Shown here in pieces: positions 2,172 to 31,905 of a stretch of DNA of 64,000 nt. A model generated the notes under the pieces. The model had not been told where the DNA came from and did no database searches. It saw nothing but the letters and a program-made list of their open reading frames with translations. The stretch spans positions 32,001-96,000 of IMG/VR virus record IMGVR_UViG_3300028920_000038, one strand, 5' to 3'. This DNA comes from a virus. A program made the position numbers and the translations under genes. Each line of letters opens with the position of its first letter. The stretch's first letter is position 1.

Positions 2172-2459
2172 ATGGATAGACATATTGTAAATAATATATG
2201 CAGGATCTTAAGAAAACAATTCGATTCTTTAAATATTCTTAATAAAGGATACTACATAAAAGGATTCAATAAATACGGTTTGTCATTTGTAATTCATGGT
2301 TATGGATTAAAGTCAGAACCATTTGAAGTGAAGATAATTAAATATGCTCATCATAATTCTGATTACTTTGAATATAATAAACAGTTCTATGATTACAAAG
2401 AGTTTGAGGATTATATTAAAAATCAACTTAAAACAGATTTAATAATGTTAGACCTATAG
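2172..2459 (+). CDS. Hypothetical protein with shared C-terminal tag (TDLIMLDL)
   Basis: ORF track; C-terminus resembles that of neighbouring ORFs. Confidence 0.6.
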   Translation: MDRHIVNNICRILRKQFDSLNILNKGYYIKGFNKYGLSFVIHGYGLKSEPFEVKIIKYAHHNSDYFEYNKQFYDYKEFEDYIKNQLKTDLIMLDL

Positions 2460-2467
2460 GAAATGTT

Positions 2468-2734
2468 ATGAAAAAATATCTAGAGAAATATAAGAAATTT
2501 ATAGGAAAAACTTGTATATATTATCCAAAGTATTTTGATGGTCCATTTATAATTAAATTTACAAGATTAGATAAAGTTGAGGATGAGTGTTATATTCACT
2601 TTATAATTATGAAAGGAGATTATATGTATGTTAATAAAAATGATAAATATAATTGGAGAGTAGATAGATTAGAAGATGGCTCCAAGAAATTTAGAGTTTT
2701 AAAGAAAGATGAAATTATGATGGAAATGTTATGA
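2468..2734 (+). CDS. Small beta-barrel-like protein with C-terminal tag (KKDEIMMEML)
   Basis: ORF track; ATGA-coupled to the next gene. Confidence 0.6.
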   Translation: MKKYLEKYKKFIGKTCIYYPKYFDGPFIIKFTRLDKVEDECYIHFIIMKGDYMYVNKNDKYNWRVDRLEDGSKKFRVLKKDEIMMEML

Positions 2735-2997
2735 GTAAAAAAGAAGTTAATTTAAAAAAGAGACAATATAAATATAAGATTGGCTCTATTATAAGATTTG
2801 GACCCGATTTAAGTTGGTATGATAGAATTAGAAATAAGATAGAAATAGGAGATTTAGGTATTGTCATAAGTGTAGATAATTATGGTCCTGTAAAAAATTG
2901 TAAAGTTAAGCATTTAAAATCAGGAAGTTTAGGATGGTTTAATAAAAACAATATGAGATTAGTATCAAAAGAAGAGGCTATTATGGAGTCATTATAA
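2731..2997 (+). CDS. KOW/SH3-like small protein with C-terminal tag (SKEEAIMESL)
   Basis: YKIGSIIRF...GDLGIVISV pattern. Confidence 0.6.
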   Translation: MSKKEVNLKKRQYKYKIGSIIRFGPDLSWYDRIRNKIEIGDLGIVISVDNYGPVKNCKVKHLKSGSLGWFNKNNMRLVSKEEAIMESL

Positions 2998-3191
2998 TGA
3001 GTGTGTTAGCAAAGTTAATTAGTATAGGATGTTTCTTGTCACCCTTTCTTATTGGATATGGAATTTATTTAATGTTAAATCCAGTGGGTTTTTGGCAAAT
3101 GACTTTATGGTTTATAATATGTTTAGTAGTATGTGTACCAGAAGGATTAATTTCTTGGACTATAGCAGTAGCATTATGGGATGAGATATAA
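2997..3191 (+). CDS. Small two-TM membrane protein
   Basis: Two hydrophobic stretches; TAATG coupling at both ends. Confidence 0.55.
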   Translation: MSVLAKLISIGCFLSPFLIGYGIYLMLNPVGFWQMTLWFIICLVVCVPEGLISWTIAVALWDEI

Positions 3192-4327
3192 TGGAATGTC
3201 CATTTGATTTAGAAAATAAAAACCAAGTAATTGAATTTGAAGAAGTTGATCCATATAATCCAGAGAATATACTAAAAGGATATGTCAATAGAAGACAAGG
3301 TCAATTGTATGGATCATTATGGATTACTCATGTTAATGGAATAGAATGTCCTCAATTAATTTACTCTGCTCCAAAACAACATTATCCATTTGATAAATCT
3401 TTTAAAGATGAAAAAGTTTACAAGTTTCCTGAATATGATTGGATAGAAATATATGAGAAGTTGGATGGAACTTGTATCATATCTTATGTATATAAAGATT
3501 CTAATGGAACTCCATTTCTTACTTTCAAAACAAGATTAAGACCATTCCTTGGTACAAGCCAATATGGTAACTTCTTTCAATTGTGGAATGAAATGATAGA
3601 TAAGTATGATACTATTATGAGTACTTGTTTCAATGAGATGTATAATTTTGTATTTGAATTGTATGGAAAGAGAAATAAAATCCTGATTGATTATGATATT
3701 CCACTTGATACTAAACTAATATTTATGATTGATACTAAACACGGTACTATAATACCGTCAAGTTGGTTTGGTGATGATGAAGGATTTCCAGTATTAATTG
3801 GATGGGAAGAGGATTTAACTAATGAAGAAAAGGATTATTTAGAATGGCAAAGTCGATTAGAAAATTCACTAGAGATAGATGAAGAAAATAAAATAATGAA
3901 AGGCAAAGAAGGATTAGTATGGTATTTTATTAAGAATGGAGGAGCAGTTCAAATAAAATGTAAACCTCCTTCTGTGCTAAAGTATCACTGGTCAGGTGAT
4001 GCTATTCCTTATGAATCTATTTATACTACAGTATACAACGCATTCGAGAATTTTGATAAGCCAACTTATGAGGATATAGTTGAGTTATTAAAAGAAGAAT
4101 TTGAAGAAGGAAAGATAGATAAATCAAGAGTAAGAATAGAAAAAACTTTAGGAAGATTATTGTTTGATAAAAAGTATCAACATAGATTAGCTAAAGATTA
4201 TAAAGAACAGGGGTTTGATATTAATAAAGATAAAGCAGAATGTATGAGATGGTTTGGAAAGAACTATCCTAAATCAGAAGCTAAAAGAATATATCGACTT
4301 CTTAAACAATACGAGGAAGCAGGATGA
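3191..4327 (+). CDS. ATP-dependent RNA ligase-like nucleotidyltransferase
   Basis: Motif I YEKLDGT, motif III FELYG, motif IV EGLVW, motif V IKCK. Confidence 0.7.
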   Translation: MECPFDLENKNQVIEFEEVDPYNPENILKGYVNRRQGQLYGSLWITHVNGIECPQLIYSAPKQHYPFDKSFKDEKVYKFPEYDWIEIYEKLDGTCIISYVYKDSNGTPFLTFKTRLRPFLGTSQYGNFFQLWNEMIDKYDTIMSTCFNEMYNFVFELYGKRNKILIDYDIPLDTKLIFMIDTKHGTIIPSSWFGDDEGFPVLIGWEEDLTNEEKDYLEWQSRLENSLEIDEENKIMKGKEGLVWYFIKNGGAVQIKCKPPSVLKYHWSGDAIPYESIYTTVYNAFENFDKPTYEDIVELLKEEFEEGKIDKSRVRIEKTLGRLLFDKKYQHRLAKDYKEQGFDINKDKAECMRWFGKNYPKSEAKRIYRLLKQYEEAG

Positions 4328-4617
4328 AGAAAATAAGAACTGTAGTTCAAAAGAAAGTAGAATTAAATATATTAACATGTAGATCAGATTTCAAGAAAGG
4401 TATGTATGTTAAGTTTGTAAATGATGAGTACCCTGAATATGGCCAAGTAATTCTAATTGGGGATTCGGAATTTGTTGTAAAATGGGTTTTGAGACCAGGA
4501 GATTCATATAATTATTATAGAGAATTTACCGCGTATGAATTCAAAGAATTAGGAGAAGATGGTGGATATATAGTAATTAAAGCCAATAGAGATGATATTA
4601 TAATGGAGAAACTATGA
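4324..4617 (+). CDS. SH3-like small protein with C-terminal tag (NRDDIIMEKL)
   Basis: FKKGMYVKF...YGQVI pattern. Confidence 0.6.
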   Translation: MKKIRTVVQKKVELNILTCRSDFKKGMYVKFVNDEYPEYGQVILIGDSEFVVKWVLRPGDSYNYYREFTAYEFKELGEDGGYIVIKANRDDIIMEKL

Positions 4618-4901
4618 ACGAAGAAGAGAAGACGATTGTAGATCTCATTAAAAAGAAAGGAATAAAATACATTAAATTTTTAAGAGATTGTGCTTCAATG
4701 GCAGCAGAATTTAATAAAGGTGAAGTGGTTGAAATTGTAGAGATATTTAGTCATGAACCTTTACATGGAGATGATCCTTCAGAAGTTAGATTAAAAATTA
4801 AATCTATAGACGGAACTAGGGATGGAAATTTAAAAATAACTAGATTCAAAGATTATTATGATTTTCCGACTAAAGACGAAATAAGGTTAGAGATTTTATG
4901 A
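4614..4901 (+). CDS. SH3-like small protein with C-terminal tag (TKDEIRLEIL)
   Basis: FNKGEVVEIV pattern. Confidence 0.6.
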   Translation: MNEEEKTIVDLIKKKGIKYIKFLRDCASMAAEFNKGEVVEIVEIFSHEPLHGDDPSEVRLKIKSIDGTRDGNLKITRFKDYYDFPTKDEIRLEIL

Positions 4902-5110
4902 AATTTAAAATTGGAGATTACGTTAGAATATCAAATGAATTAGGAGGAGTTATAACTTCAACTCATAGAGATAGAGTGGGTAAGATTATATTCTTATCCG
5001 AATCTCCAGTTCCATATTATAAGGTAAGATTTTATGATGAAGATTGGGTATTTTTTGAAGGGGAACTTTTAAAGTCAAATAAAGATGAATATTTAATGGA
5101 GGTGTTATAA
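4898..5110 (+). CDS. KOW/SH3-like small protein with C-terminal tag (NKDEYLMEVL)
   Basis: MKFKIGDYVRI...GKII...YKVRF pattern. Confidence 0.6.
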   Translation: MKFKIGDYVRISNELGGVITSTHRDRVGKIIFLSESPVPYYKVRFYDEDWVFFEGELLKSNKDEYLMEVL

Positions 5111-5721
5111 TGGAAATATATATCAGTCCAGGCAATAGACGAATGGACATACCGACATTCAGCTTACCAGCAGTTAAGACATGTCCAGGATCCACAGAAT
5201 TATGTAAGAAGAATTGCTATGCACTTAAAGCTGAAAAGGTTTGGAAAGGTCCTAAACAATCAAGGAATAGAAACTACGATATAAGTATGACAAAAGAATT
5301 TGTGGATAAGATGATTCATAAAATATCAAAAAGTAACAAAGAATATTTTAGAGTACACGAATCAGGAGATTTTTATTCACAGGAGTATTTAGATAAATGG
5401 ATAAAGATATTTGAAGAATTTAATATAGAGGATAAGAAAAAGAAGTTCTTAATATATACACAGAAATATGATTTAGATTATTCTAAACTTCCAAGTAATG
5501 TAATTCTCTATTGGACAATATGGCCTGATACAGATATAGATAAAGTACCAGAAGGTTTGAGAGCTTATGTTATTGATGACGGAACTGGTAAGATTCCAGA
5601 GAATACTTATATAATTAATGAGCCAAAGATCTGTAAGAAGGGTAAAGGTTCTAAATTAAAATGTGATGACTGTATGTATTGTTATGAAGGCAGAGGTGAT
5701 GTAGTATTTATCCTTCATTAA
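5110..5721 (+). CDS. Phage gp88-like (radical-SAM-related) protein
   Basis: FSLPAVKTCPGSTELCKKNCYA (Cx6Cx3C), FRVHESGDFYS and a C-terminal C...CxxCxxC cluster. Confidence 0.7.
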   Translation: MEIYISPGNRRMDIPTFSLPAVKTCPGSTELCKKNCYALKAEKVWKGPKQSRNRNYDISMTKEFVDKMIHKISKSNKEYFRVHESGDFYSQEYLDKWIKIFEEFNIEDKKKKFLIYTQKYDLDYSKLPSNVILYWTIWPDTDIDKVPEGLRAYVIDDGTGKIPENTYIINEPKICKKGKGSKLKCDDCMYCYEGRGDVVFILH

Positions 5722-5954
5722 GATTTAGAATATTTAAATTAAAAGATGTCAGAATTAAAAAGATAACAAAATCTGGAGATGTATTTTATAGATTATATCT
5801 CAAAAGAAGATTTATACCTATCTGGTTATATGATAGTTCAGAAGTTAGATTAGAACATATTATTTCTAGTTACAAACGAAAGATGAAAGAGATACAGCAT
5901 CCTACGAAATCGGAATGGATTCCAAGAGAAGAGCTTTTGATTGATGAACTATAG
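5706..5954 (+). CDS. Hypothetical protein missed by the ORF track (probable ATT start), C-terminal tag PREELLIDEL
   Basis: Stop-free 83-codon frame; RBS GAGGTGA at 5693-5699 lies 6 nt before ATT; C-terminus matches the tag family. Confidence 0.55.
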   Translation: MYPSLRFRIFKLKDVRIKKITKSGDVFYRLYLKRRFIPIWLYDSSEVRLEHIISSYKRKMKEIQHPTKSEWIPREELLIDEL

Positions 5955-5992
5955 AAAGATTTATATACTACATATACCACAAACTATATAAA
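5954..5992 (+). promoter_or_regulatory. Archaeal-type BRE-TATA promoter
   Basis: GAAAGA-TTTATATA at 5954-5967, a second TATA-like CTATATAAA at 5984-5992, and RBS AGGAGA before ATG 6032. Confidence 0.6.
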
Positions 5993-6031
5993 TGTTTCGT
6001 ACCTAATAGAGTATAATGACAGGAGAGAAAC

Positions 6032-6541
6032 ATGAAAACTAAGTATTATCATTCTAAAACAATTAGAACCGATGGATATAAATCTCAACCAGAGTATGAT
6101 GAATTGATATCTGATTTAGATATATCAAGTCTACGGTTCTTGAAGCAGAAAAAACAGAAAGACATTAATGAATTTAGAAGTACACATGATTTGAATAATC
6201 CAGAATATGCTGAAAAATATAAAGTAATGCAACAGCAATTTGTAATGATAACTCAAGAAATAAAACACCGTCAAGTGTTTAATGAATCATCTAAAGAAGA
6301 AGAATGGTACGATCCAGAGACAGGCTTTATCATAGATGAACATGGGAATTATAAAGGAGCTGTATATTATGATGAGAATGAAGAATCTATGGTATATAGT
6401 AATTCAGAAGATAATGTAGAATCAGTTAGTTTTGAAGAAGAAGATGAAGATGAGTTTGATTATCAATATGCAGATAAGGATTTAAAAGATTCTAAAATGT
6501 CCTGGGAAGATTGGTGTAAAGAAAAAGGATTACAAAAATAA
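6032..6541 (+). CDS. Acidic hypothetical protein
   Basis: ORF with RBS; very acidic C-terminal half. Confidence 0.6.
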   Translation: MKTKYYHSKTIRTDGYKSQPEYDELISDLDISSLRFLKQKKQKDINEFRSTHDLNNPEYAEKYKVMQQQFVMITQEIKHRQVFNESSKEEEWYDPETGFIIDEHGNYKGAVYYDENEESMVYSNSEDNVESVSFEEEDEDEFDYQYADKDLKDSKMSWEDWCKEKGLQK

Positions 6542-7116
6542 TGAGAAAAACTACAGATGATGGAAGAATAATAATAACTAAAAGAGGAAAAGAAATATCC
6601 AAATCTTCTTATAGTAATTGGGATTTGTGGAAACTTTCTAAAGATTTAAATAAAGATGAATTGAGTATGTTAATTACTTTAAGAAAAAATTACCTAAAAC
6701 ATACAGAAGATCCAGAAATGATAAGAGGTTATAGAAGGGATATTCTTATATTAGAAGATGCATATAAAATAAAGAGCAGGGAAGAAATAGGAATATACAG
6801 TAAATCAGATTATTCAGAATCCTATTGGCATGAAGATTTAGATGAGTTATCTTCTCTAGCTGTTTGTATGATTAATAAATTAGGTTACACACAAAATACT
6901 TTATATAAAGAGAATGCTTTAAATATTAGCAGGCGAATAGAATTAGAGGGAGATAAAGAATTAATAGCAGCCTGTATAGTAAAGAATATATTAGATTATT
7001 ACGAATCAAAATTTGATATAAATTACATATTAAAATTGTATAGTATCAACGAACCAGATTTTTATAAGACCTATATTGAGTGTAATCGTTGGTGTTCAAA
7101 GCACTACTGGAGTTAG
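6541..7116 (+). CDS. Hypothetical protein; C-terminal half resembles one TFB/TFIIB cyclin repeat
   Basis: MINKLGY..ALNISRR..LIAACIV..FDINYILKLYSINEPDFYKTY pattern, aligned by eye only. Confidence 0.4.
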   Translation: MRKTTDDGRIIITKRGKEISKSSYSNWDLWKLSKDLNKDELSMLITLRKNYLKHTEDPEMIRGYRRDILILEDAYKIKSREEIGIYSKSDYSESYWHEDLDELSSLAVCMINKLGYTQNTLYKENALNISRRIELEGDKELIAACIVKNILDYYESKFDINYILKLYSINEPDFYKTYIECNRWCSKHYWS

Positions 7117-7225
7117 ATTTTTTTAGTACATAAAAAATTATTGTAGAGTGTGCTATGCAAATTGATTAGATTTAATACGTAAAATATGTAAAAAAAAAAA
7201 GAAAACAAAAAAAGGAGAAAAAATA

Positions 7226-7915
7226 ATGGCTGAAATAATAAGCGAAGATATGTTTGGTGACATCCTAAAGAGTGGACCATCGCAATTCATTTACCCTCCT
7301 AAAGAGGGAGAGCCAGAGATTGTAGTAGTATTTCAATCGAGTATATCAATTACGAATCCTGGCGATGAAGATGTGTTGGGTAAGATTTGGGATCCACCAA
7401 CAGAAGATGCAAACGGAAATCCAATTATAGATAAGTTCGGACCGAATAAAGGGAACCCTATGCAACCTTGGGCTAAAGTAGAAGCACAGGTTACTAAAGG
7501 AGGCTCTCCTAGTGTACTTACTTTTGGAAGAAAGAACGGAGCATTCCTTAGAGAATTTGGTATAAAGATGAATGAAGAAGATATTACCAACCAAGATCTT
7601 AAAGGAACCAAATGGTCTATACAAAGGACTGGAAGGTATAATTGGTCAATCGAATATCTAGGAAGGGAGGAGTCTGACTCCTCTACTCCTAAAGAAGAGA
7701 AGAAAGAAAATAAGGATTTAGAAAGTATAAAATCAAGTTTAGTTAGTTTAAAATCTGGAAATCCAGATGTAGCTAAAGGTGTAGATAAAAACCAACTTAT
7801 GCAAAATTTGGTATTCATAACTGGATTAAAACCTGATGCAATTAAAAGTAATTGGGATAAACTAATTAAAGAGAAAATTATAGAAGAAAAAGACAACACA
7901 GTTAAGGTGCTATAA
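7226..7915 (+). CDS. Putative ssDNA-binding protein (OB-like core, linker, C-terminal winged helix)
   Basis: Context (precedes exonuclease and RadA), strong RBS AAGGAG, and a wH-like C-terminus GVDKNQL...WDKLIKEKIIEEKDNTVKVL. Confidence 0.4.
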   Translation: MAEIISEDMFGDILKSGPSQFIYPPKEGEPEIVVVFQSSISITNPGDEDVLGKIWDPPTEDANGNPIIDKFGPNKGNPMQPWAKVEAQVTKGGSPSVLTFGRKNGAFLREFGIKMNEEDITNQDLKGTKWSIQRTGRYNWSIEYLGREESDSSTPKEEKKENKDLESIKSSLVSLKSGNPDVAKGVDKNQLMQNLVFITGLKPDAIKSNWDKLIKEKIIEEKDNTVKVL

Positions 7916-8145
7916 TGGCAAATGTAAAATCACCTTGGGATACTAAATTCCTAAGAGAGACTCCTTTCATAGCATTCGGATCTATGATGAATGCATATGG
8001 TAGAATGAATGAAGGTAAAGAAATCACTCCAGAGGAATTTGAGAAGATAGCCAATAAATTATTCCAAATCGCTAAAGGATATGCAATAGCTGCATTCGGT
8101 GCTGCATCTACAGATGATGAAGTAGACCTACCTGTGAAACAATGA
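7915..8145 (+). CDS. Hypothetical protein
   Basis: ORF track; translationally coupled at both ends. Confidence 0.55.
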   Translation: MANVKSPWDTKFLRETPFIAFGSMMNAYGRMNEGKEITPEEFEKIANKLFQIAKGYAIAAFGAASTDDEVDLPVKQ

Positions 8146-8696
8146 AATTAGAGAAAATATTATCTGAACATATAAATAAAAGTAAACCAAAATATACAAG
8201 AGAATTAGGAAGATATTGGGCTACTGATATCAATTCAATAAAGAAAGGATACCTTACTCCAGATAACTTCTTTGTTAGTAAAGATATTAATATAGACGGA
8301 GTTAGGATGATACTAACTGGTATGGCCTATGAAGATATGCTCACCAAGATATTTAAAGAAGGTGGAGTTGATTGTAGTCCTCAAGAGAAAAAGGTCATGA
8401 AAATTACAGAGGAAATAGATCTGGTTGTTAAACCTGATTATGTGTTTCCAGACTTTGTTGTTGAAACTAAATATCCATTCTCTGTGATGAAACCTAATAG
8501 TATACCAGATAGATATAAATATCAATTAGAGTGTGAGTATAGGGCATTTGAAAGACCAGTTTATTTGGGAACATTCTCTGCTCCTTTTAATGTTACATTT
8601 ACTTTGTATCATCCTTCAAAGAATATCTGGAAGAATATACAAAAGACCTTGGTAGATTTTCATGAACAGCTTAAGAAGAAGCAAAATGAAATATGA
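8142..8696 (+). CDS. PD-(D/E)xK nuclease (Cas4/lambda-exonuclease-like)
   Basis: G..YE, KPDYV, VVETKYP and YQLxxxY motifs. Confidence 0.75.
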   Translation: MKLEKILSEHINKSKPKYTRELGRYWATDINSIKKGYLTPDNFFVSKDINIDGVRMILTGMAYEDMLTKIFKEGGVDCSPQEKKVMKITEEIDLVVKPDYVFPDFVVETKYPFSVMKPNSIPDRYKYQLECEYRAFERPVYLGTFSAPFNVTFTLYHPSKNIWKNIQKTLVDFHEQLKKKQNEI

Positions 8697-9733
8697 TATT
8701 AAAGAGTTTATATTATGATCCAAACGGAATTGCAAGAGGAATTGTTGAGAACAATAGTAGGCAATATAACGTCTCCATCTGTCGTGAATTTAACCGTAGT
8801 TGGTGTTCATGCGCCTACAATCTTTTCAATAAGAGTCCTTGCAAACACATAATGTTTTTACTTGGTGAAGTGGATTTGAATAAAATGGTAAAGAAGAAAA
8901 TTTTAGATAGATTAGAAACAGGTTGTAAAACAATAGATGATCTTCTAGCTGGAGGTGTTCCATACTCTATTGTATCTGGAGTATATGGTAAACCAATGGC
9001 TGGTAAGTCGATGTTTTGTTATCAGATAGCTCTTGCTAACATTAAAGATAATGATAGAAAAGTTCTGTATATAGATACAGAAGGAATTAGAGTTACTGAT
9101 ATTAGAAGATTAATGTATAAATTTGGTGAGAGATTTGATTTAAAACCAGAAGAGATTAATAATAAAATAGAAATTATTAGTACTCTTGGTGATGTTCAAT
9201 TAAAATCTCTACAGAAATTGTTTAGAATGTTCGGTGAAATGGTTACACTCGATCAGTCAAAAGGAGGTAAATACACTCCTCACTTTGAAGTTTGTCATCC
9301 TACATATGATGATAAGAAGCTTGGAGAATATTCTATGATTATCATTGATTCATTATCAAAACCAATCAAAGATGCCATAGGTTCTAATACACCTAATCTA
9401 CCTGCTAGATCTCAGATACAGGAGAGACTATTCGGTATGCTAACACACAAAGCTATGATGCATAATCTAGCAATTATAATTAATCATCATACTACAAGAA
9501 ATCCTGCTATGCCTTTCGGTGAAGACTTCGGAACTCCTTCTGGTGGAGATGCTATTATGTATAATACCAAATATGTCCTGGAATTCTGGACAGCTACTAA
9601 TAAGATTAAGAATGATTCCAATTGGGGTATTGAAGCAAGACGAGTTAGATTATTCCGACATCCAACAGAACAAGTTACTGGAGAATGGCAAGTAGTAAGG
9701 CTCAAGAAAGATTACGGATATACGGATGAATAA
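8693..9733 (+). CDS. radA: RadA/Rad51-family recombinase with N-terminal SWIM zinc finger
   Basis: ETGCKTIDDLLAGG, Walker A GKPMAGKS, YIDTEG, Walker B IIIDS; N-terminal WCSC-x9-CKH. Confidence 0.85.
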   Translation: MILKSLYYDPNGIARGIVENNSRQYNVSICREFNRSWCSCAYNLFNKSPCKHIMFLLGEVDLNKMVKKKILDRLETGCKTIDDLLAGGVPYSIVSGVYGKPMAGKSMFCYQIALANIKDNDRKVLYIDTEGIRVTDIRRLMYKFGERFDLKPEEINNKIEIISTLGDVQLKSLQKLFRMFGEMVTLDQSKGGKYTPHFEVCHPTYDDKKLGEYSMIIIDSLSKPIKDAIGSNTPNLPARSQIQERLFGMLTHKAMMHNLAIIINHHTTRNPAMPFGEDFGTPSGGDAIMYNTKYVLEFWTATNKIKNDSNWGIEARRVRLFRHPTEQVTGEWQVVRLKKDYGYTDE

Positions 9734-9947
9734 AGATATGTATAGTGTGTTTAGAGATAAAGTAAAAATACTCGAAAGAGAATTTAAAAAAAGATTCGGT
9801 GATAAAGACTACACTGTTAATATAACTATGTGGAATGACGAAGATTTTCAGATAATCTTGTGGTATTCTACAGGAAATAGACTGATTCATAGATTATCTT
9901 TATCCTCAGATAATTCAGATATATTGTATTCAAAGGAAAAGATATGA
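9726..9947 (+). CDS. Hypothetical protein
   Basis: ORF track. Confidence 0.5.
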   Translation: MNKDMYSVFRDKVKILEREFKKRFGDKDYTVNITMWNDEDFQIILWYSTGNRLIHRLSLSSDNSDILYSKEKI

Positions 9948-10475
9948 TTGATATTAATAGAATTAAAGAGATAGCAAAGAAGATAGCAAGAAATGACAAA
10001 AAATGGGTGATAAATAAAAAATGAAATGTCCTGAATGTGGAAAAGAACTTGGCGAAGGAAGTTATGTGGATATGATTCGCATAGGTTGGTGTTGTTCTGA
10101 TTGTAATGTAAAAATTTATAAAGAGATTTATGAGTAATAATTATGGTTATAGTATGTCCTAATTGTGGCTATCATATAAAATTAAGCAGCAGTCTAATTC
10201 ATTATATAAATGAATGTCCGAAGTGTGGAACATTCTTATCAAATGACGGAGTTGGTTGTTATAAGTAGAGTAAGACAAACATGTATTAAAAGAGCAGCAC
10301 TAGAGATTATGGAACGATTTCCAGATAAACTTGGAGGATCTTTTGAAATGAATAGAGAATTCATACGTTCCGTAATGAATGGTAACAAGAGATTAATAAA
10401 TAGAATATCGGGATATACAGTGAGATTATATAATAAGAAAAAGAAGAATGCAGAATCCATTACAAAGGGATATGT

Positions 10476-10931
10476 ATGAGAACACGTGTAACAAGAAAAC
10501 ATATCGAAAGTGCTAAAAAGAAATTAGAAGGTAAACATAGGTGCCTTTATTGTAATTATGCACATGATGATATAGAAGTATTAAAAAGACATGAAGCTAA
10601 AATGCACGGATGTTTTAGAGATAAGAATCCAAGACATCCATCAGTTAAATCAGAACAATTAAAAACCAGACCTAAAGGACCACCTTCTGAAGATAGAATA
10701 CTTAAACGAGCAGATGTATTCAAAGTTGGTGATATTGGTATTTGTGTAACTTACGAATGGGATGATAAGATAGAAAAATACCGAATGTATACAGATGATT
10801 TAAAATACAGAGATCATTTAGAAATTGTAGAAAAAGAAGGTCTAAAAGAATTTGGTATTAAAGATATAGAAAATCTAAGAGAAGAGTATAAGAACAGGCA
10901 CACTAATAAGGACGTGATTAAATTAGAGTAA
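10476..10931 (+). CDS. C2H2 zinc-finger protein
   Basis: CLYC-x12-H-x4-H. Confidence 0.6.
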   Translation: MRTRVTRKHIESAKKKLEGKHRCLYCNYAHDDIEVLKRHEAKMHGCFRDKNPRHPSVKSEQLKTRPKGPPSEDRILKRADVFKVGDIGICVTYEWDDKIEKYRMYTDDLKYRDHLEIVEKEGLKEFGIKDIENLREEYKNRHTNKDVIKLE

Positions 10932-11146
10932 TTGATTATCTTAAGTGTGAATGTGGAGGATTATTCTATCAAAGAAATATTTCTGAAAGCAGATCAGAAC
11001 CATTTAAGATTGTAAGGTCTAGAAAATGTAATAAGTGTGGTAAAGTAGTACGTACTATTGAAATTACATTAGAATCTTACGATCAATCTGTGTCATTATT
11101 GAATAAAATTATTGAACTTATTAAGACCACCCAGTTAAAAAAATAG
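10931..11146 (+). CDS. NrdR-like zinc-ribbon protein (probable ATT start, missed by the ORF track)
   Basis: CEC...RSRKCNKCGKVVRTIE; the start position overlaps the upstream TAA (TAATT in place of TAATG). Confidence 0.6.
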   Translation: MDYLKCECGGLFYQRNISESRSEPFKIVRSRKCNKCGKVVRTIEITLESYDQSVSLLNKIIELIKTTQLKK

Positions 11147-11225
11147 TCAAAAATTTAGTTACTGTGCTTAAATTTTAGTCGAAAATTAGTTACAGTAACA
11201 TGTAAAAATAAAACGAATGGTATAG
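11144..11225 (+). repeat. Iterated element, copy 1 (AAAATTAGTTAC-n7-n9-AAAACGAATGGTATAG plus a tandem upstream unit)
   Basis: 44-nt core at 11182-11225 recurs inverted at 52205-52248; contains the GTTAC-A-GTAAC palindrome. Confidence 0.8.
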
Positions 11226-11226
11226 T

Positions 11227-11517
11227 ATGGACCTGAATGAATTACGTGATATTTGTCATAAAATTGCAGTAGAGAAAGGTTTTTGGGAATCAAGCAAATC
11301 TACACCGATTAAGCTAATGTTAATAGTATCTGAATTAGGTGAAGCTTGTGAAGCTGATCGTAATGACGATTACGATAATTTCCGAGAAGAAATTGCAGAT
11401 ACATTCATAAGACTATTAGATCTTTGTGGACATTTGAATATAGATATTGAATACGAAATAGATAAGAAAATGGACACAAATAGAAAGAGAGCTAGACTAC
11501 ATGGAAAAAGATATTAA
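11227..11517 (+). CDS. MazG-like nucleotide pyrophosphohydrolase
   Basis: SELGEACEA...EEIADTFIRLLDL (ExxE...EExxD). Confidence 0.85.
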   Translation: MDLNELRDICHKIAVEKGFWESSKSTPIKLMLIVSELGEACEADRNDDYDNFREEIADTFIRLLDLCGHLNIDIEYEIDKKMDTNRKRARLHGKRY

Positions 11518-11735
11518 TGAAAAAAGGGGAAGTATATAAAATAGAATCGATGCCTTGTGGTCACAAGTGTTATTCAAGATTCTGTTCAATGGGAATTATT
11601 AAAGGACAGGAATTCACAGTTAAAGAATGTGAACCATATGGTCCTATAGTTATAGATGTTAAAGGAATAACATATTCTATAGGACGTGGAATGTTAGGTC
11701 ATTTGGGATTAGTAAAGATAGGTGATGCTAAATAA
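11517..11735 (+). CDS. feoA: FeoA-domain (SH3-like) protein
   Basis: RFCSMGIIKGQEFTV...PYGPIVIDVKG..YSIGRG. Confidence 0.8.
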   Translation: MKKGEVYKIESMPCGHKCYSRFCSMGIIKGQEFTVKECEPYGPIVIDVKGITYSIGRGMLGHLGLVKIGDAK

Positions 11736-12361
11736 TACTCTGCGATTCAAGAGAACCTGATGAATTAATTAAAAAATTAAAATGTAAATGTAATGCTAAA
11801 GAAGAATTTTTAGGAGTTGGAGATTATATATTCTCAGACGGCTACGCTATTGAAAGAAAGAAAGGACGAGATCTAATGGCATCAGTGATGTCTAATAGAT
11901 TATTTGAACAGCTAAATAACCTATATGAATATGATAATCCTATACTAGCAATTATATCAGAGAACATCTGGAGAGATTTTTATTACACAAAAAGTAAATA
12001 TATTCATAAGCAATACATAGGAGTGCTCTCAACTCTTACATGTAAGTATCCTAAACTTAAGATTGTTTACTTTGATACTGATGATTCTTTTATAGATTAT
12101 ATGGTTTCTTTGGATAAGAAACTAAATGAAGATGGTAAAAAAGAAAGACCTGCACCTGTAATGAGAAAAGCAAAGAGTATACAAATGAGAAAAGAGAATG
12201 CATTAACTGCAGCAGAAGGTGTAGGAATTCCTATGGCTAAAAAATTATTAAAGAAGTATGGATCTATAATTCAAATAGCTAGTGCTGAAGATGATGATAT
12301 GTTAAAAATTGATAAGTTAGGAAAGAAAACTGTTAAAAATATTAAGGAGTTGTTAAATTAG
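11732..12361 (+). CDS. XPF/ERCC4 structure-specific endonuclease with C-terminal HhH2
   Basis: Extending upstream of the track start (11876) recovers CDSRE, GDY and IERK; C-terminal GVGIPMAKKLL and KLGKKT hairpins; probable ATA start with RBS GGTGA. Confidence 0.85.
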   Translation: MILCDSREPDELIKKLKCKCNAKEEFLGVGDYIFSDGYAIERKKGRDLMASVMSNRLFEQLNNLYEYDNPILAIISENIWRDFYYTKSKYIHKQYIGVLSTLTCKYPKLKIVYFDTDDSFIDYMVSLDKKLNEDGKKERPAPVMRKAKSIQMRKENALTAAEGVGIPMAKKLLKKYGSIIQIASAEDDDMLKIDKLGKKTVKNIKELLN

Positions 12362-12645
12362 TGACCAAGAAATCAGAGACATTAAAAGAAGAAATAGAGA
12401 AACTGATTCAAGAGAGAGATTCATTAGCACTTAAAATTAATAATCTAAATGGTAAGATAGATTTAAAGACTGATGAATATTTCGAGAGTAGTGATAACTA
12501 CGTAAAAATTAAATGTCCAAACTGTGGAGGACGAGGATATGTCCAAAACCAAGAAACAGGAAAAAAGATTGTTTGCAAAGGATGCAATACCAAAGGGTAC
12601 ATCTGGTTGGAGAAATTTGAAGAATCAAAAGCGTCAGATAATTAA
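12361..12645 (+). CDS. Coiled-coil plus DnaJ-type zinc-finger protein
   Basis: CPNCGGRG and CKGCNTKG repeats; GTG start. Confidence 0.55.
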   Translation: MTKKSETLKEEIEKLIQERDSLALKINNLNGKIDLKTDEYFESSDNYVKIKCPNCGGRGYVQNQETGKKIVCKGCNTKGYIWLEKFEESKASDN

Positions 12646-12856
12646 ATCTGCCATTGAATGTTTTGTATCATTAATACTTATATTAGCTTGTACAGCTATT
12701 ATATACTTTCCATTGGTGTACCTAATTAATAATGGATATGTTATACATCCAGATAATTTATGGCTATTCTATGCAGGTTGTTTATTACTAGGATATCTGT
12801 TAGCAAATATATTATATAAACTATATGAATATTTAAAATATCGATAGAGGCATAAA

Positions 12857-13234
12857 ATGTTTAGTAAGGATATAGAATTGTCTTTTAAAAGAAAAACAGG
12901 CAGATGTTCTGTTACTATAACTAGTAATGGAGTCAAAGATTTCTATGTAGTATCTAAAAAAGATATTGACAGAATGGATTTAAATAAATCAGATCTATTC
13001 TTTAAATTCATAGACACAGAATTAAATGGAGAAAGAACAATTATATGGAATAAAGAAGCTATTGATAGCATTCTTATAGAAGAAGAATATACTATAGACA
13101 GTATGAAATGTAGAGATCAGGAAGAAGCCGAGAGTGTTATCAGTGAAATGGAAAAGAATAATTGGAATATAGAATTAATTATTTGTGAAGATGATAAAAT
13201 ATTAAAAGACTTAAAAAGAAAATATATCAAATAA
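12857..13234 (+). CDS. Hypothetical protein
   Basis: ORF track; RBS GAGG. Confidence 0.55.
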   Translation: MFSKDIELSFKRKTGRCSVTITSNGVKDFYVVSKKDIDRMDLNKSDLFFKFIDTELNGERTIIWNKEAIDSILIEEEYTIDSMKCRDQEEAESVISEMEKNNWNIELIICEDDKILKDLKRKYIK

Positions 13235-13259
13235 ACTAAAAAAAGGATGTAGACACAAA

Positions 13260-14054
13260 ATGGAAATAATAGAAGTAGAAGTTCCAAAAAATATGGACCT
13301 GTATTTTATAGGTGATACTCACATACCTAGAGGTAAGCTGAGTAAATTTAAGGCTGTTATACAAGAGATACGAAAATGTAAGGATGCCAAGGTAATTGGT
13401 TTAGGAGATTGGATTGAAGCAATTAAGTTTGGAGATCCTAGATACGATCCTGAAGAAGCAGCAGATCAAATAAAAGAGAATGACGGATATATCAATATGA
13501 TAAATGAACAGTGGGAAAAGTTTGAAGATATCATAAGACCAATAGCAGAGCAGGATAAGATTCTAGGATTACACCAAGGAAATCACGAATATCAGTACAC
13601 GAAGAGACATAGTCACAATGGCCTAAAGGAAATGTGTAAGAGATTAAGCATTAGATATTTGGATTATCTTCCTACAGTTTGGAGATTCAAATATGGAAAA
13701 ACTGAAACTAAAGCTATGACATTACATGGTATAGGATCTGGTGTAGCAGAAGGATACGAAGTGAGACAATTGGATAAACATTCAAGGATATTTGATGAAG
13801 TCGATTTAATAGCAGAAGGTCATACACATAAGTTAACTGTTAGTGTTACTTCTGATAGATTAAGAATTACTAAAGACAACGATCTGAAACAGAACATACA
13901 ATGGCGTTGTGCTTGTGGATCCTTCCTTGGAAACTACGATGTAGGAAAATCATCTTATTCAGAGAGAGCATTATATAAACCATTACCTATAGGATATGTT
14001 AAAGCTAGATTTGAATCAGCTAAATTAATAAATGCAATAGCAGTTCCGGTATAA
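13260..14054 (+). CDS. Calcineurin-like metallophosphoesterase/nuclease (Mre11/DP1-like)
   Basis: GDTH, GDWIE, GNHE, HG and GHTH motifs. Confidence 0.8.
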   Translation: MEIIEVEVPKNMDLYFIGDTHIPRGKLSKFKAVIQEIRKCKDAKVIGLGDWIEAIKFGDPRYDPEEAADQIKENDGYINMINEQWEKFEDIIRPIAEQDKILGLHQGNHEYQYTKRHSHNGLKEMCKRLSIRYLDYLPTVWRFKYGKTETKAMTLHGIGSGVAEGYEVRQLDKHSRIFDEVDLIAEGHTHKLTVSVTSDRLRITKDNDLKQNIQWRCACGSFLGNYDVGKSSYSERALYKPLPIGYVKARFESAKLINAIAVPV

Positions 14055-14257
14055 TGAAAGAATATGAAAGAGAGCACTATACATTAAGAGCATATAAAGA
14101 TGAGAGTTATGCTCTCGAAGTGTACGATCCTGTTCTTAGAACTTCAAAGTCTTACTACGATTCTTCTTGGGAGAAGCTATATCATAAAGCAAAAGAAGAA
14201 GCTTCTAATGGAAAAAGCTGTAAGATCTTTGAATTAAAGTATGAGTTTGAATATTAA
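14054..14257 (+). CDS. Hypothetical protein
   Basis: ORF track; TAATG coupling. Confidence 0.5.
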   Translation: MKEYEREHYTLRAYKDESYALEVYDPVLRTSKSYYDSSWEKLYHKAKEEASNGKSCKIFELKYEFEY

Positions 14258-14508
14258 TGAGACCATACGACAGATTTGAAATTGGAGATATAATAGAATT
14301 TAAATATAGAAATTATCCGGAAAGAGGATATATTATATTTAAAGTTATGGATAAAAAGACTAATCCATATGTAATGTATAAATTAAAACAATTAGCTAAC
14401 AAATCAAATATACATATAAACTTTGAAAATGGATGGCAATCATTTAATTTCAAGTATCATATATGTGAAAAAAAGAAAAGAGATGAAATAACGGTTGATT
14501 TATTATGA
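14257..14508 (+). CDS. SH3-like small protein with C-terminal tag (KRDEITVDLL)
   Basis: FEIGDIIEF pattern; shared C-terminus. Confidence 0.6.
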   Translation: MRPYDRFEIGDIIEFKYRNYPERGYIIFKVMDKKTNPYVMYKLKQLANKSNIHINFENGWQSFNFKYHICEKKKRDEITVDLL

Positions 14509-25438: not shown

Positions 25439-25888
25439 ATGGGGACAAAACTAATCGAATCCGATGAATACACTTTACATAGATTTTATGGTGGAGACAA
25501 ACGAGGTGTGATGTATCAGATAACTCAAAAGCATACAGAACCATTTAGCGATTCAGAATATCATTACATACATTTGTCTGCTGAACAGATACATCATATC
25601 TATGAGACTATAATTAATAGAGAGTATGATTTAATTGATGAGGAAATGAAAGTGAAAACATTAAAAGATTTAATAAAAGAAAATGACGATGATCTTACCT
25701 TTGGTGGATATACAGAAGATGTTCTACAAGAAGCTGCAAGAGAATGGATAGAAAAAATAGACGATGTCCTTTATGATGATAAGAAAGAAGAAAATTTAGC
25801 ACCATATAAACCTGATAACTATTACCATATGGATGAAGTTATGAGATGGATAAAACATTTCTTTAATCTAGAGGAGGACCAGGAATGA
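25439..25888 (+). CDS. Hypothetical protein
   Basis: ORF track. Confidence 0.55.
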   Translation: MGTKLIESDEYTLHRFYGGDKRGVMYQITQKHTEPFSDSEYHYIHLSAEQIHHIYETIINREYDLIDEEMKVKTLKDLIKENDDDLTFGGYTEDVLQEAAREWIEKIDDVLYDDKKEENLAPYKPDNYYHMDEVMRWIKHFFNLEEDQE

Positions 25889-26096
25889 GTAATGATTGGA
25901 GTTTGAAAGGGAAGTGTATCAGACCGTTTCCTAGTGTTGGTAAATCAGGATTTTATTCCAAAGATGACATCGAAATCCTCCGAGAGAAATTTATTGAAGA
26001 TATGAAAGAATATATGGACAGTCTTGGGTATATAAGATATTATGATGAAATTGAAATGATAAAAGTTATCAACAAACTATTCGGAGTTGAAACTGA

Positions 26097-26522
26097 TTGA
26101 ATATTATAGGAGCATTCGATAGAAATAGAGTATCAGAACTAGAACCACGAGCTAATAGCGTACTTATATCTATAACTTCTCAAGAATCCAGACACCCAGA
26201 TGTAGATAATAAATGGAAAGATATTCTACGTCTAAAGTTTGATGATGTAGAAGGTAGGATGCTAGATATAGAAGGAGCATCTAATGTTCTAACTGATGAG
26301 CAGGCTGAAGAGATTCTTGACTTTGTTATAGAGAATATAGAAAGTGACTTCTTTGTTAACTGCGATGCAGGTATCAGTAGAAGTACTGGAGTAGTTGTGG
26401 CCTTGGAGTTAATATTTAATTCTAGAGATGTATCTGATAGATACCCCTATCATAATAGATATGTAAAGAATAAGATACGAGATACTTGGTTTAAGAGAAT
26501 ATGGAAAGGTAAAGAAGAATGA
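26097..26522 (+). CDS. Protein-tyrosine-phosphatase-like (Cx5R) enzyme
   Basis: VNCDAGISRS P-loop; LISIT and LxFDD motifs. Confidence 0.8.
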   Translation: MNIIGAFDRNRVSELEPRANSVLISITSQESRHPDVDNKWKDILRLKFDDVEGRMLDIEGASNVLTDEQAEEILDFVIENIESDFFVNCDAGISRSTGVVVALELIFNSRDVSDRYPYHNRYVKNKIRDTWFKRIWKGKEE

Positions 26523-27466
26523 TAATAATAGCATGGGATTCACTTCGATTAGATGCAGTAGAACCTTTAAAAGGAATATTAGGAAAAGAATCTTGGACCT
26601 CAATGCCATCTATTGATGGTTTCACAGGTCCTATACTTCCTTCAATTATATGTGGTAAGTCTCCTGAGGATTTAGGAATCCCTAGAGACGACTCAGCTTT
26701 CTATTCTGGAATTGATCCAGAGAAGATAGATGATACTTTATTTGATTACTTCGATTCATATATCACTGTGTCTAGATTAATTGGACCTGATACACATCCT
26801 TGTGTACCATTACCTCCATCAAGAAAAGGTATGACAAAATTTATGCCTCCTATACAATGGAATGCAGTAAGCAATTGGGATGTTGATATCTGGAGATATC
26901 TAGGCATGAAATGGTCTATGAGTAATCCATATTGGAAAGATATGATATTCTTCTGGACATTTATTACTCATGGTAACTTCACTATCTACGATAGCCTTGG
27001 TGCAGTAGAATCACCCGAGATTAAAGATGGTAGTAGATTGATGAGAAGATTGGCTTATAATGATCCTAAAGCTTTACGTGAGTTATATATGAAGGGAGTG
27101 TACTATGCAGCTGAGACACTTAAAGGACTTAATGAAGTCTGTGGTGGTAAAGAACTAATAGTATGCTTCTCTGATCATAATGAAGCTCTTGGTGAAGAAT
27201 ATATGGGACAGAAGGTAACAGGACATTTCCATGGAATGCAGACAATTCCTGGATTAGAGAATATACCTCTATGGGTTAACAGACCAGATGTAGAGTTTCC
27301 AGAAGATATGAGTCAATTAAAGATTAAGGATCTTTGTGTTGAGTTGTATAATAAATATGAAAAGAATGACCCAGAGATACAGAAATATAAACGCAAAAAG
27401 CTTGGTATGTTAGGCAAACAAGTTCTAAAAGAGTGGGGAGATTCCACTGTTGAAATGCCTGACTAA
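26519..27466 (+). CDS. Alkaline-phosphatase/sulfatase superfamily protein
   Basis: IAWDSLR, FTGP (Thr nucleophile position), HG, SDHNE and GHFHG. Confidence 0.75.
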   Translation: MIIIAWDSLRLDAVEPLKGILGKESWTSMPSIDGFTGPILPSIICGKSPEDLGIPRDDSAFYSGIDPEKIDDTLFDYFDSYITVSRLIGPDTHPCVPLPPSRKGMTKFMPPIQWNAVSNWDVDIWRYLGMKWSMSNPYWKDMIFFWTFITHGNFTIYDSLGAVESPEIKDGSRLMRRLAYNDPKALRELYMKGVYYAAETLKGLNEVCGGKELIVCFSDHNEALGEEYMGQKVTGHFHGMQTIPGLENIPLWVNRPDVEFPEDMSQLKIKDLCVELYNKYEKNDPEIQKYKRKKLGMLGKQVLKEWGDSTVEMPD

Positions 27467-27770
27467 ATTATTTAAAAGAAACAAAAAAGAAATTATTGAT
27501 AAAGAAGAATCAAAATATCCGATTAAACTTATTAATGAATATGTTAATAAATATATATATGTAGATTATATAGATTTAGATATACCCAAAAACTTTGAAG
27601 GCACTTTATTATTCGAATCAACAGACCAAGGATTTTATATGGGTAATCCAGAGAATTACTATTTAATATGTTGGGATTGGAAAAGTCCAGTATCTGGAAA
27701 AGAGCAAAGATCTTATATAGTATCTATAAAAGATTCTGAAGGAAATCTTATTTGGAGAAGAGATGATTAA
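27450..27770 (+). CDS. Hypothetical protein
   Basis: ORF track; start uncertain. Confidence 0.45.
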   Translation: MKCLTKLFKRNKKEIIDKEESKYPIKLINEYVNKYIYVDYIDLDIPKNFEGTLLFESTDQGFYMGNPENYYLICWDWKSPVSGKEQRSYIVSIKDSEGNLIWRRDD

Positions 27771-27946
27771 ATGGCTTCGATGAAATATGCGGGATTACGC
27801 CATTGTCTATCATGCCTATATAGATATCAATGTGAAAGAACTATTAAATCTATAATGAGGGAAGGATGTAATTTATATCTCGGTGATGATAAAATTGTTG
27901 CAGATGGAGATGATTGAATTCCATTTTGATATGAATAGGAGAAAAT

Positions 27947-28306
27947 ATGGAGGAGATATATAAGATAGAATCGACTAATTATACATTAACTTTAAGAGCA
28001 ACTCATATTAAAGATAGATTTCCTATAGCTTATGCTTCTATAGAAATAGAAGATAAGGATGGATTAAAAATAGGAAAATTAGTAGGAATGATTAGAAGAC
28101 AGGAATTTAAAGGGATGGGAATATGCAAAGATCTTTTGATTGAAAGATTAAAATTATGTAGAATTCTAGGATGTGATAAGGCATATAGTGCAGTTTATTA
28201 TAAAAGAACTGGACTCATTAAATTATATAAAGAATTAGGATTTGAAGAGATAGAACCTTTATCTTCTGAATATGTTAGATTTGAAAAATTATTGAAAGAG
28301 GAATAA
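27947..28306 (+). CDS. GNAT-family N-acetyltransferase
   Basis: RQEFKGMGI acetyl-CoA loop and LYKELGF. Confidence 0.75.
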   Translation: MEEIYKIESTNYTLTLRATHIKDRFPIAYASIEIEDKDGLKIGKLVGMIRRQEFKGMGICKDLLIERLKLCRILGCDKAYSAVYYKRTGLIKLYKELGFEEIEPLSSEYVRFEKLLKEE

Positions 28307-28307
28307 T

Positions 28308-28529
28308 ATGGTAGGATATAAGAATATATCAATCCCTGTACCGTTGTATGACCGATTAGAAAGTATGGCTAAGGAGAATAATTTTAAGAATATAAGGGCA
28401 TTCATAATACATTTAATAAGAGAAACTGTTTCTAGATATAATGCAGAAAAGGATGGAATATTCTTCCTAACTGATAATGATGAAGAGAAGATCAAGAAGA
28501 GATTAAAAGAATTAGGATACATGGATTAA
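28308..28529 (+). CDS. Ribbon-helix-helix (CopG-like) regulator
   Basis: NISIPVPLYDRLESMAK...FIIHLIRE; C-terminal LKELGY. Confidence 0.7.
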   Translation: MVGYKNISIPVPLYDRLESMAKENNFKNIRAFIIHLIRETVSRYNAEKDGIFFLTDNDEEKIKKRLKELGYMD

Positions 28530-28986
28530 AAATGGCAGACGCTTGGTATCCAAAAGATGATGAAGATCAATGGGAATCTTGGTATCCCAAATGTCCTGCA
28601 TGTAAATCAAAGAATATTAAAGTGCTGGATGTATATAGAATTTCTTATGAATTAAATAGAGAAATTAGAAAAATGAGATGTGGAGATTGTAAAAATGAGT
28701 TCTGGGAATCGGAAGCCAGTTATTGAGAAATTAAAAAGAACTTGTTATGCATGTCCCAGTCAATGGGAAGGAAGAGATACAGAAGGTTATCCATATTATA
28801 TAAGATATAGATGGGATCACCTAACTGTGAGTAAGGGTAAAAGATATGGCCATATAGATACTGCAATAATGGCTGAGCCATATTTTTCAAAGACAGTTAA
28901 AGGAGATGGAATATCTGGAATCTTAGATTTTAATGAATTAAAGGAACAATTGAAATATACATTAGTAATTAAAGAGGAAATCGAAG

Positions 28987-29592
28987 ATGAAGATTACTTT
29001 GCTTGATTATACTGAAAATGGAATGAATAAAATAGCCAGAATGGCAAGAGCAACAAGATTGAATAGTTATGAGAATGGATTTGAATTAGATGAAACTAAA
29101 GATGATAAATTTGTTAAGAGATTAATAAGAGTGGGACATCTAGGAATTCTAGAACACATCTCCTTTACTTTTCATATATCAGAAGTGAGTAGGTGTTTAA
29201 CACATCAATTGGTAAGACATAGGATAGCATCCTATTTACAGATGAGTAATAGACATGCTAAGCCAGAGTTTCGTGGATATGTAACTCCAATTTCAATTAA
29301 TACTATAGAATATAAAGAATTCATGGATAATGCATATCTACTATACCGAGATATGATAGCAGATGGTTTACCTATAGAAGATGCAAGATATGTTTTACCA
29401 CCTGCATTCTTTACTCATATATCAGTAACTATGAATTGTAGAGAATTACTCCATTTCTTTGAATTGAGATGTGATAAAGCAGCTCAATGGGAAATAAGAG
29501 GAATGGCTTTAGAAATGTTAAAAATATGTTATGAAAAATATCCAGTGATATTTAAGGATATTTATGATAAGTACAAGAAGGATATAAAATGA
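28987..29592 (+). CDS. thyX: Flavin-dependent thymidylate synthase
   Basis: GHLGILEH, QLVRHRIASYLQMSNR, EDARYVLP and AQWEIR. Confidence 0.95.
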   Translation: MKITLLDYTENGMNKIARMARATRLNSYENGFELDETKDDKFVKRLIRVGHLGILEHISFTFHISEVSRCLTHQLVRHRIASYLQMSNRHAKPEFRGYVTPISINTIEYKEFMDNAYLLYRDMIADGLPIEDARYVLPPAFFTHISVTMNCRELLHFFELRCDKAAQWEIRGMALEMLKICYEKYPVIFKDIYDKYKKDIK

Positions 29593-29909
29593 ATTATACA
29601 TGGTCAACTACAACATCTAGTCATTGTGGAGATGGATCTAGTTATCACTTTTATTATGATAAACCATATAAGAATAAGCCAGCTACATGGGAAGATGTAT
29701 TTAAAATCAATTGGGATAAAATAAATCAAGTTCCTAAACCAGAAAAACCTACAGATATATTCAGTAGAGAAGAGACTATAATAACTAAAGATGGAGAATC
29801 AATATCATTAACTCTTGGAGAGTTATATGAATTGGAGAAACTTGGATTAGATCCAACAAAAATGACAAAGGAAGAATTAGAACAGCAATTATTAGCTATA
29901 AGGTTATAA
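29589..29909 (+). CDS. Hypothetical protein
   Basis: ORF track. Confidence 0.5.
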   Translation: MNYTWSTTTSSHCGDGSSYHFYYDKPYKNKPATWEDVFKINWDKINQVPKPEKPTDIFSREETIITKDGESISLTLGELYELEKLGLDPTKMTKEELEQQLLAIRL

Positions 29910-29922
29910 ATGTTTATATAAA
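29908..29922 (+). promoter_or_regulatory. Possible TATA box upstream of nrdJ
   Basis: TTTATATA at 29913-29920; RBS GAGGA precedes the second ATG (29936). Confidence 0.4.
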
Positions 29923-29923
29923 A

Positions 29924-31435: not shown

Positions 31436-31686
31436 TAGAAGAAATAACTATATATACAACACCAAATTGTAAATATTGTCAAGAAGCTAAGAATATTATA
31501 TCAAAATATTTTATTGAATACAATGAAATTAATTTAAAGAAAAAGGAAAATAGAAAAGCTAGAGAATTTTATAGAAGTTTAGGAATTAAAACAGCTCCAG
31601 TGATTGTCATTAAATCAAATGGAGAAGAGATTATATTATCTGAATATGATAGTGAAATGTTAGAGGAGATGATTGAGAGCGCATGA
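31423..31686 (+). CDS. Glutaredoxin/NrdH-like redoxin
   Basis: YTTPNCKYC and TAPVI. Confidence 0.85.
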   Translation: MLSMIEEITIYTTPNCKYCQEAKNIISKYFIEYNEINLKKKENRKAREFYRSLGIKTAPVIVIKSNGEEIILSEYDSEMLEEMIESA

Positions 31687-31901: not shown

Positions 31902-31905
31902 TTCA

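Follow-up and report, generated by a model that had tools for sequence, protein, structure and literature searches.

The 64,000-nucleotide stretch analysed here, referred to as the window, comprises bases 32001 to 96000 of the 137,847-bp record of one virus (IMG/VR record IMGVR_UViG_3300028920_000038). A dozen small early proteins of this virus really do share one ten-residue helical ending, termed the tag in the following. The ending is mainly the hallmark of a protein family and may be a shared docking handle too. The family is virus-restricted, uncatalogued, multigene and fast-evolving, and consists of SH3/KOW-like barrels of 66-96 amino acids (aa) with a hypervariable middle and one conserved Tyr. 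The ending is predicted to form a short N-capped amphipathic alpha-helix, with S, T, N or D at position -10 from the C-terminus, followed by [KR]-[DE]-E-h-M-V-E-x-L-COOH (h, hydrophobic; x, any residue).

A strict form of the motif, [KR][DE][DE]hxh[DE]xL, was used for counting. The eight C-terminal endings quoted in the initial annotation are all present in the sequence, and seven of them match the strict pattern. The eighth (2172-2459), for which the same motif had been claimed, is a loose match only, scoring 3.1 bits with a position-specific scoring matrix (PSSM) compared to 18-25 bits for the other seven. Genes were called as the longest open reading frames (ORFs), the C-termini of which are dependable, the starts less so. 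The eight genes and one untagged gene are listed below; E-values refer to a body-only hidden Markov model (HMM), built from family members not encoded in this genome, after removal of the last 20 residues, and searched against the 220-protein set of the genome.

2172 to 2459, plus strand: protein of 95 aa, end …LKTDLIMLDL; separate alpha/beta family with 7 orthologues (alignment A5), C-terminal helix loosely tag-like.
2468 to 2734, plus strand: tagged protein of 88 aa, end …KKDEIMMEML; ATGA overlap with the next gene.
2731 to 2997, plus strand: tagged family member of 88 aa, YKIGSIIRF…SKEEAIMESL; TAATG overlap with the next gene; E 1.7e-3.
4324 to 4617, plus strand: tagged family member of 97 aa, FKKGMYVKF…NRDDIIMEKL; ATGA overlap; E 2e-4.
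4614 to 4901, plus strand: tagged protein of 95 aa, end …TKDEIRLEIL; marginal family member; E 0.18.
4898 to 5110, plus strand: archetypal family member of 70 aa, MKFKIGDYVRI…NKDEYLMEVL; E 3.9e-10.
5706 to 5954, plus strand: ORF of 82 codons, end PREELLIDEL; strict tag, no canonical start.
14257 to 14508, plus strand: tagged family member of 83 aa, FEIGDIIEF…KRDEITVDLL; ATGA overlap; E 2.3e-7.
36302 to 36505, plus strand: family-like SH3/KOW barrel of 67 aa, MTWKIGDKFKF…, no tag (end …SIKRICD); far from the array; E 4.1e-5.

The strict motif and a canonical start codon are combined in six of these genes (2468-2734, 2731-2997, 4324-4617, 4614-4901, 4898-5110 and 14257-14508). Among the approximately 232 predicted proteins of the whole record, the strict expression was matched 8 times: seven matches are at the exact C-terminus, one is followed by one more residue, and internal matches are absent; about 0.005 matches were expected at the C-termini of the record. 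The match with the extra residue is found upstream of the window, in g25666 (RDDVIIEHL and one more residue). This gene is one of several tagged or tag-like genes that immediately precede the window (G000 25666-31911: g25666, g26059, g26482, g28928 and g31465), and the array therefore begins approximately 7 kb before it. The product of g28928 is a double zinc ribbon with the end KERIRIEIL.

Since the pattern had been chosen after the fact, independent DNA was used for replication. Related loci were fetched with an alignment of 125 metagenome homologues of the ligase-like gene 3191-4327 (plus strand, with an EKLDGT nucleotidyl-lysine motif), a single one of which is annotated with a Pfam family (PF09414). 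This gave 107 loci, 27 of them viral and 80 metagenomic. In these loci the strict motif was found 18 times, always at the C-terminus and never internally (285,000 residues). At a PSSM threshold of ≥8 bits, 63 C-termini of the related loci were recovered, compared to 0.8 expected, and the information content is limited to positions -10 to -1. A DNA-pattern scan covering a single record gave 2 matches. The motif is restricted to one sub-clade, comprising this record and eleven loci with a ligase 64-77% identical. An alternative lineage-specific tag was sought in the C-termini of the tag-free relatives, where positional information was approximately zero. In a sister lineage (ligase 70% identical; L034:2746-3712, L076:2746-3712, also L002), two proteins end in Y-x-I-V-A-M-x-L, one of them an orthologue of the window gene 2172-2459. 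Among 185,579 species genomes, the tag pattern was confirmed on a single contig, a virus-like contig with eight consecutive tagged genes in a bacterial metagenome-assembled genome (MAG).

The initial annotation had described the carriers as unrelated. This is wrong for at least half of them: 4898-5110, 14257-14508, 4324-4617 and 2731-2997 match the family HMM without their last 20 residues, and 4614-4901 is marginal. The relationship is visible in profiles only. With BLAST and phmmer, applied pairwise after removal of the tags, 70 tagged proteins fell into approximately 55 singletons, and the picture of unrelated proteins given by these pairwise searches was overturned by profile searches. An HMM of tag-trimmed bodies ranked tagged proteins higher than the untagged small proteins encoded in the same loci (area under the curve 0.63-0.96) in a cross-validation with test sequences lacking a detectable homologue in the training set. 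In alignment A3, an N-terminal K-h-G-D-Y-h-K-h strand and an h-G-K-V-h strand are seen, with G6 and Y41 near-invariant. The body-only HMM gave no match for 2468-2734, 5706-5954 and 2172-2459.

Searched against 1.84 billion representatives, the profile of the tagged proteins detected 205 proteins at E ≤ 0.001. Among the best 150 of these, 113 are 66-96 aa long and match from end to end, while the remainder are long SH3-repeat proteins. The 113 full-length members start with MKxK-h-G-D-Y-h-K and end with [ST]K[DE]E-h-M-V-E-x-L-COOH; the profile contained the tag, and the search is therefore silent on the number of family barrels without it. Information content in the 113 representatives reaches 3.8 bits at the motif G and 2.6 bits at D, and mean identity across the family representatives is 47% in the last 10 residues compared to 23% in the middle. 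At 50% identity the family resolves into over 100 clusters, which consist entirely of uncharacterised metagenomic sequences (ten sampled clusters are metagenomic singletons). Neither Pfam nor PHROGs contains a family for the eight proteins or for 106 family members, and a description of such a tag or family was not found in the literature. The family has expanded in tandem, both in this virus and in the relatives closest to it, into mostly stop/start-overlapping arrays, with at least eight consecutive overlapping genes and near-constant ends.

The impression of the initial annotation that many bodies are SH3/KOW-like barrels was correct. With A3 as alignment, the AlphaFold model of 4898-5110 (predicted local distance difference test score, pLDDT, 89) shows five strands and a helix at residues 62-69. 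The neighbours are generic SH3-like barrels, among them YorP, KOW, Tudor and PsaE (Z 7.7-8.6) as well as PWWP and chromo-barrel domains. The ending of the 113 representatives shows the pattern of a capping box, with S, T, D or N at position -10 in 102 of them and E more frequent than any other residue at -7. Of the 113, 97 terminate in L and 14 in I. The first gene of the list differs from this fold: the model of 2172-2459 (pLDDT 93) consists of a helix, five strands and two helices, has no SH3 match and is closest to Pur-alpha, with a template modelling (TM) score of 0.42.

In the clade, 36 small proteins encoded on the plus strand have a family-like body, and 31 of these are tagged. On the other hand, 30 of 61 tagged small proteins score below 10 bits on the body HMM. 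Zinc ribbons of several CxxC types are found among these low-scoring carriers, as are helical proteins, proteins 45-53 aa long and two proteins with a transmembrane segment at the N-terminus. Several of the non-family carriers cannot be barrels. Since the helix also closes small proteins other than barrels, it behaves as a semi-portable module, and 3'-end exchange within the arrays probably spread it to other bodies. The possibility that the tag on foreign bodies is the upstream flank or initiation region of a family gene is not supported, the next gene usually not being family-like.

The helix is conserved at nearly every position, acidic or hydrophobic, while the barrels diverge, and is therefore read as a common protein-protein contact. 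On this basis we give an even chance to the proposal that the capped helix would be a shared interaction module, bringing different mini-proteins to one host or viral partner. The further proposal that the ten-residue helix is a truly portable address label, by which a dozen or more different early mini-proteins per virus (barrels, zinc ribbons and membrane-anchored proteins) would dock on one hub of the host or the virus, is possible but less probable. Several results weigh against a shared contact. The terminal helix is confident in both models (4898-5110 and 2172-2459), as for a helix packed on its own fold. Some of the non-family bodies may be undetected, highly divergent barrels. When orthologues of a non-family carrier are compared, the ending does not exceed the body in conservation; in the family of 2172-2459, the values are 30% for the ending and 37% for the body. 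Coupling to a following gene is also more frequent for tagged genes than for untagged ones (odds ratio 3.1, p 0.001). Finally, AAA, PDZ_2, MIT and TPR_12 domains were sought in the virus proteins and not found.

A first alternative is that the ending is a family hallmark and nothing else. The helix would then only cap the SH3/KOW-like barrel, a common partner would not exist, and the odd carriers would be hidden homologues or functionless recombined 3' ends. This is possible, although on the less probable side. Half of the carriers demonstrably belong to one family, the pLDDT of the helix is high, many SH3-like domains (chromo-barrel, PWWP) have a C-terminal helix, and the conservation of the tag in the non-family orthologue groups, given above, is in line with it. 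This contrasts with the ranking of the individual positions: D at -8, E at -7 and E at -3, which are charged and presumably exposed (2.4-2.6 bits), as well as M and V, outrank all barrel positions except Gly6. Strong tags are moreover present on zinc-ribbon, membrane-anchored and 45-53-aa proteins unable to hold a barrel, and the family-like barrel at 36302-36505 is without the tag.

It is unlikely that the helix is a degron for the timed proteolysis of the presumed early proteins, with Lon, a viral peptidase or the PAN/proteasome of the host as the protease, or an address by which they are packaged into the virion. The hydrophobic C-terminal tail on many different proteins would suit such a role. 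Class III PDZ ligands have the pattern [DE]-x-hydrophobic-COOH. The tag ending fits this pattern. Matches to PDZ_2 (PF13180) were not found among the virus proteins, and the same is true for the AAA, MIT and TPR domains mentioned above. Furthermore, the tagged genes are located in the plus-strand replication-gene block, outside the structural module, which counts against capsid cargo. The tag is also unlike the known signals. The HbYX tail and the ssrA-type LAA do not fit, the tag endings being [ED]-x-L, and neither does an encapsulin-type cargo-loading peptide, as the predicted helix follows directly after the last strand and GSL is missing. The consensus likewise lacks the Gln and the aromatic pair of the PIP box recognised by PCNA (Q-x-x-[ILM]-x-x-[FY]-[FY]).

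It is still less probable that the last ten residues act as a nascent peptide in the ribosome exit tunnel, tuning termination or re-initiation on the overlapping start, in the manner of arrest peptides such as TnaC and SecM. Such an action would account for a motif held in strict register with the stop codon irrespective of the protein body; the motif is never internal, is conserved at the amino acid level and is enriched in overlapping arrays. However, the capping box and the confident helix suggest an element that is folded in the mature protein. Tags are also present at array ends without a downstream gene (5706-5954 and L035:9891-10148), and untagged coupled junctions work in the same genomes.

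The initial annotation had pointed out that the ME codons double as the ribosome-binding site of the next gene, and had considered this inadequate as an explanation. Both points are supported by the codon data. In the tag, V at -4 is encoded by GTG in 44% of cases compared to 10% in the background, and E at -3, in coupled genes only, by GAG in 63% compared to 23%; only these two positions show such a skew. In 4898-5110, for instance, ATGGAGGTG within the tag is the Shine-Dalgarno (SD) sequence of the gene starting at 5110. K, D and E (-9 to -7) as well as S/T (-10) show background codon usage. Therefore, selection acts on the tag as a peptide, and the SD of the next gene is merely overlaid at synonymous sites of its M-V-E codons. 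Tag-free relatives likewise place the SD in the last codons of upstream genes, where it is read as KE, EE, GD and others. The motif is absent from all 843 translationally coupled genes of these relatives (95 loci). The next start is located no more than 15 nt downstream in 55 of 71 tagged genes, while no such start is present in 16; in 56 of the 71, TTA or CTA encodes the final residue. An SD 4-mer of any kind is present in only 25 of the 55 coupled tags, and coupling without the tag occurs in this genome as well (e.g. at the end of the ligase, …EEAG). The association of tag and coupling (the odds ratio of 3.1 given above) makes some link to translation possible and fits the position of the tagged genes in tight arrays. 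An ending that arose only as a by-product of translational coupling, the upstream frame simply reading the SD and the ATGA/TAATG overlap that belong to the following gene, would account for the close starts, the last codon, the GTG/GAG enrichment and the odds ratio, but is largely refuted by the 843 coupled genes without it, the sparse SD 4-mers, the background codons at -10 to -7, the 16 tags without a nearby gene and the untagged coupling, and is the least probable of the explanations considered.

The record has a G+C content of 31%. Plus-strand genes span approximately 17 kb to 84 kb, while the structural genes are encoded on the minus strand. The tandem family arrays occupy the first 20 kb or so of the plus-strand replication-gene block, from which early expression is inferred. 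A label of Thermoplasmata is attached to one homologue of a neighbouring gene. The contig with the tag pattern found among the species genomes (CAZNER010000036.1, 20 kb, L114) is a clear relative of this virus and carries a GP88-like gene, a phosphoesterase and the eight consecutive tagged genes (L114:5843-7587). It was binned in a 'Candidatus Saccharibacteria' MAG, which is either a misbinning or a hint of a non-archaeal host. Locus searches of viral contigs with single-protein queries (ligase-like and RecA-like neighbours) gave no matches, and neither did a search of a phage collection.

Several individual proteins of the list deserve comment. The body of 2468-2734 is not matched by the body HMM, while a full-length HMM reaches E 2.5e-4 via the tag. 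After an N-terminal extension, 4614-4901 has the SH3-like signature FNKGEVVEI, and it is similar to the product of the tagged g26482 (BLAST E 8e-4). A word-indexed homologue search with 4324-4617 returned only the protein itself. The orthologue of 14257-14508 is L078:3678-3923, with the end DKDEVMLELL. By contrast, tblastn searches with 5706-5954, 2468-2734, 4614-4901, 4324-4617, 2731-2997, g25666 and g28928 against 113 related loci gave zero orthologues. The ORF 5706-5954 overlaps the end of the GP88-like gene 5110-5721, and no further gene starts within 77 nt downstream. ATG, GTG or TTG codons are not found before 5883, and an ATT at 5706 is located 5 nt after a strong SD (GAGGTGA). The body-only HMM showed no similarity of its body, and ESM recognition was low, with nothing usable from the ESM Atlas. 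This ORF may be an ATT-initiated gene or a decaying member of the array.

The analysis defines a protein family missing from Pfam and PHROGs. Near-constant ends and hypervariable middles in arrays are an architecture typical of conflict-driven binder families. If the ending is an address label, the arrays would amount to an effector system that is modular, diversifies rapidly and has one handle in common for delivery or recruitment; if the helix is a docking handle, its partner would be the hub that this virus lineage targets first and a direct clue to the host. The endings also illustrate clearly how the same codons can carry a protein motif together with a ribosome-binding site, two layers that can be told apart by codon usage.

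Terminal peptides shared as addresses are known from encapsulin cargo-loading peptides, the T4 capsid-targeting sequence, T4 clamp-binding tails and the ssrA tag. As in the virus described here, one short terminal peptide is present on several proteins, and in those systems it docks its carriers on one partner. The viral tag differs from them in lacking a GSL, LAA or aromatic clamp motif and in being a capped helix that is part of a domain family. With respect to the barrel, chromo-barrel, PWWP and Tudor domains also combine an SH3-like barrel with a C-terminal helix, and the matches to MSL3, MRG15 and PWWP extend to model residues 68-70. These are eukaryotic chromatin readers, however, with Z scores of 6.7-7.5 and without sequence similarity. 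The best profile-to-PDB sequence match of alignment A4 is DUF1918 (PF08940; Rv2302, PDB 2A7Y; E 0.0014), in which KVGDY… is aligned. DUF1918 is also carried by the long repeat proteins recovered with the family profile, but 4898-5110 reaches only E 0.19 and the match excludes the C-terminal helix. The KOW/SH3-like barrels of uL24, NusG and Spt5 (PF00467) have the N-terminal h-x-x-G-D-x-V-x-h strand with a near-invariant Gly in common with the viral family. The structural likeness amounts to Z 8.6 for Spt5 KOW6-7 and Z 7.9 for NusG, and weak profile matches to L24 were obtained (E 0.004-0.07). With PF00467, one of 106 members was detected at E 0.0058, and none scored above the Pfam gathering score. 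These matches cover the barrel and not the terminal helix, and the viral proteins are stand-alone and multi-copy. The best Foldseek match and nearest solved structure is YorP of the Bacillus subtilis phage SPbeta (PF09629, PDB 2HEQ; TM 0.70, 28% identity over 63 columns, Z 7.7; ESM Atlas TM 0.72), likewise a phage-borne SH3-like barrel of approximately 70 aa, to which no function is assigned. The PF09629 profile matched none of the 106 family members at E ≤ 0.01. The likeness to YorP is thus structural only, while the capped ending and the tandem multi-copy arrays are known from the viral family described here.

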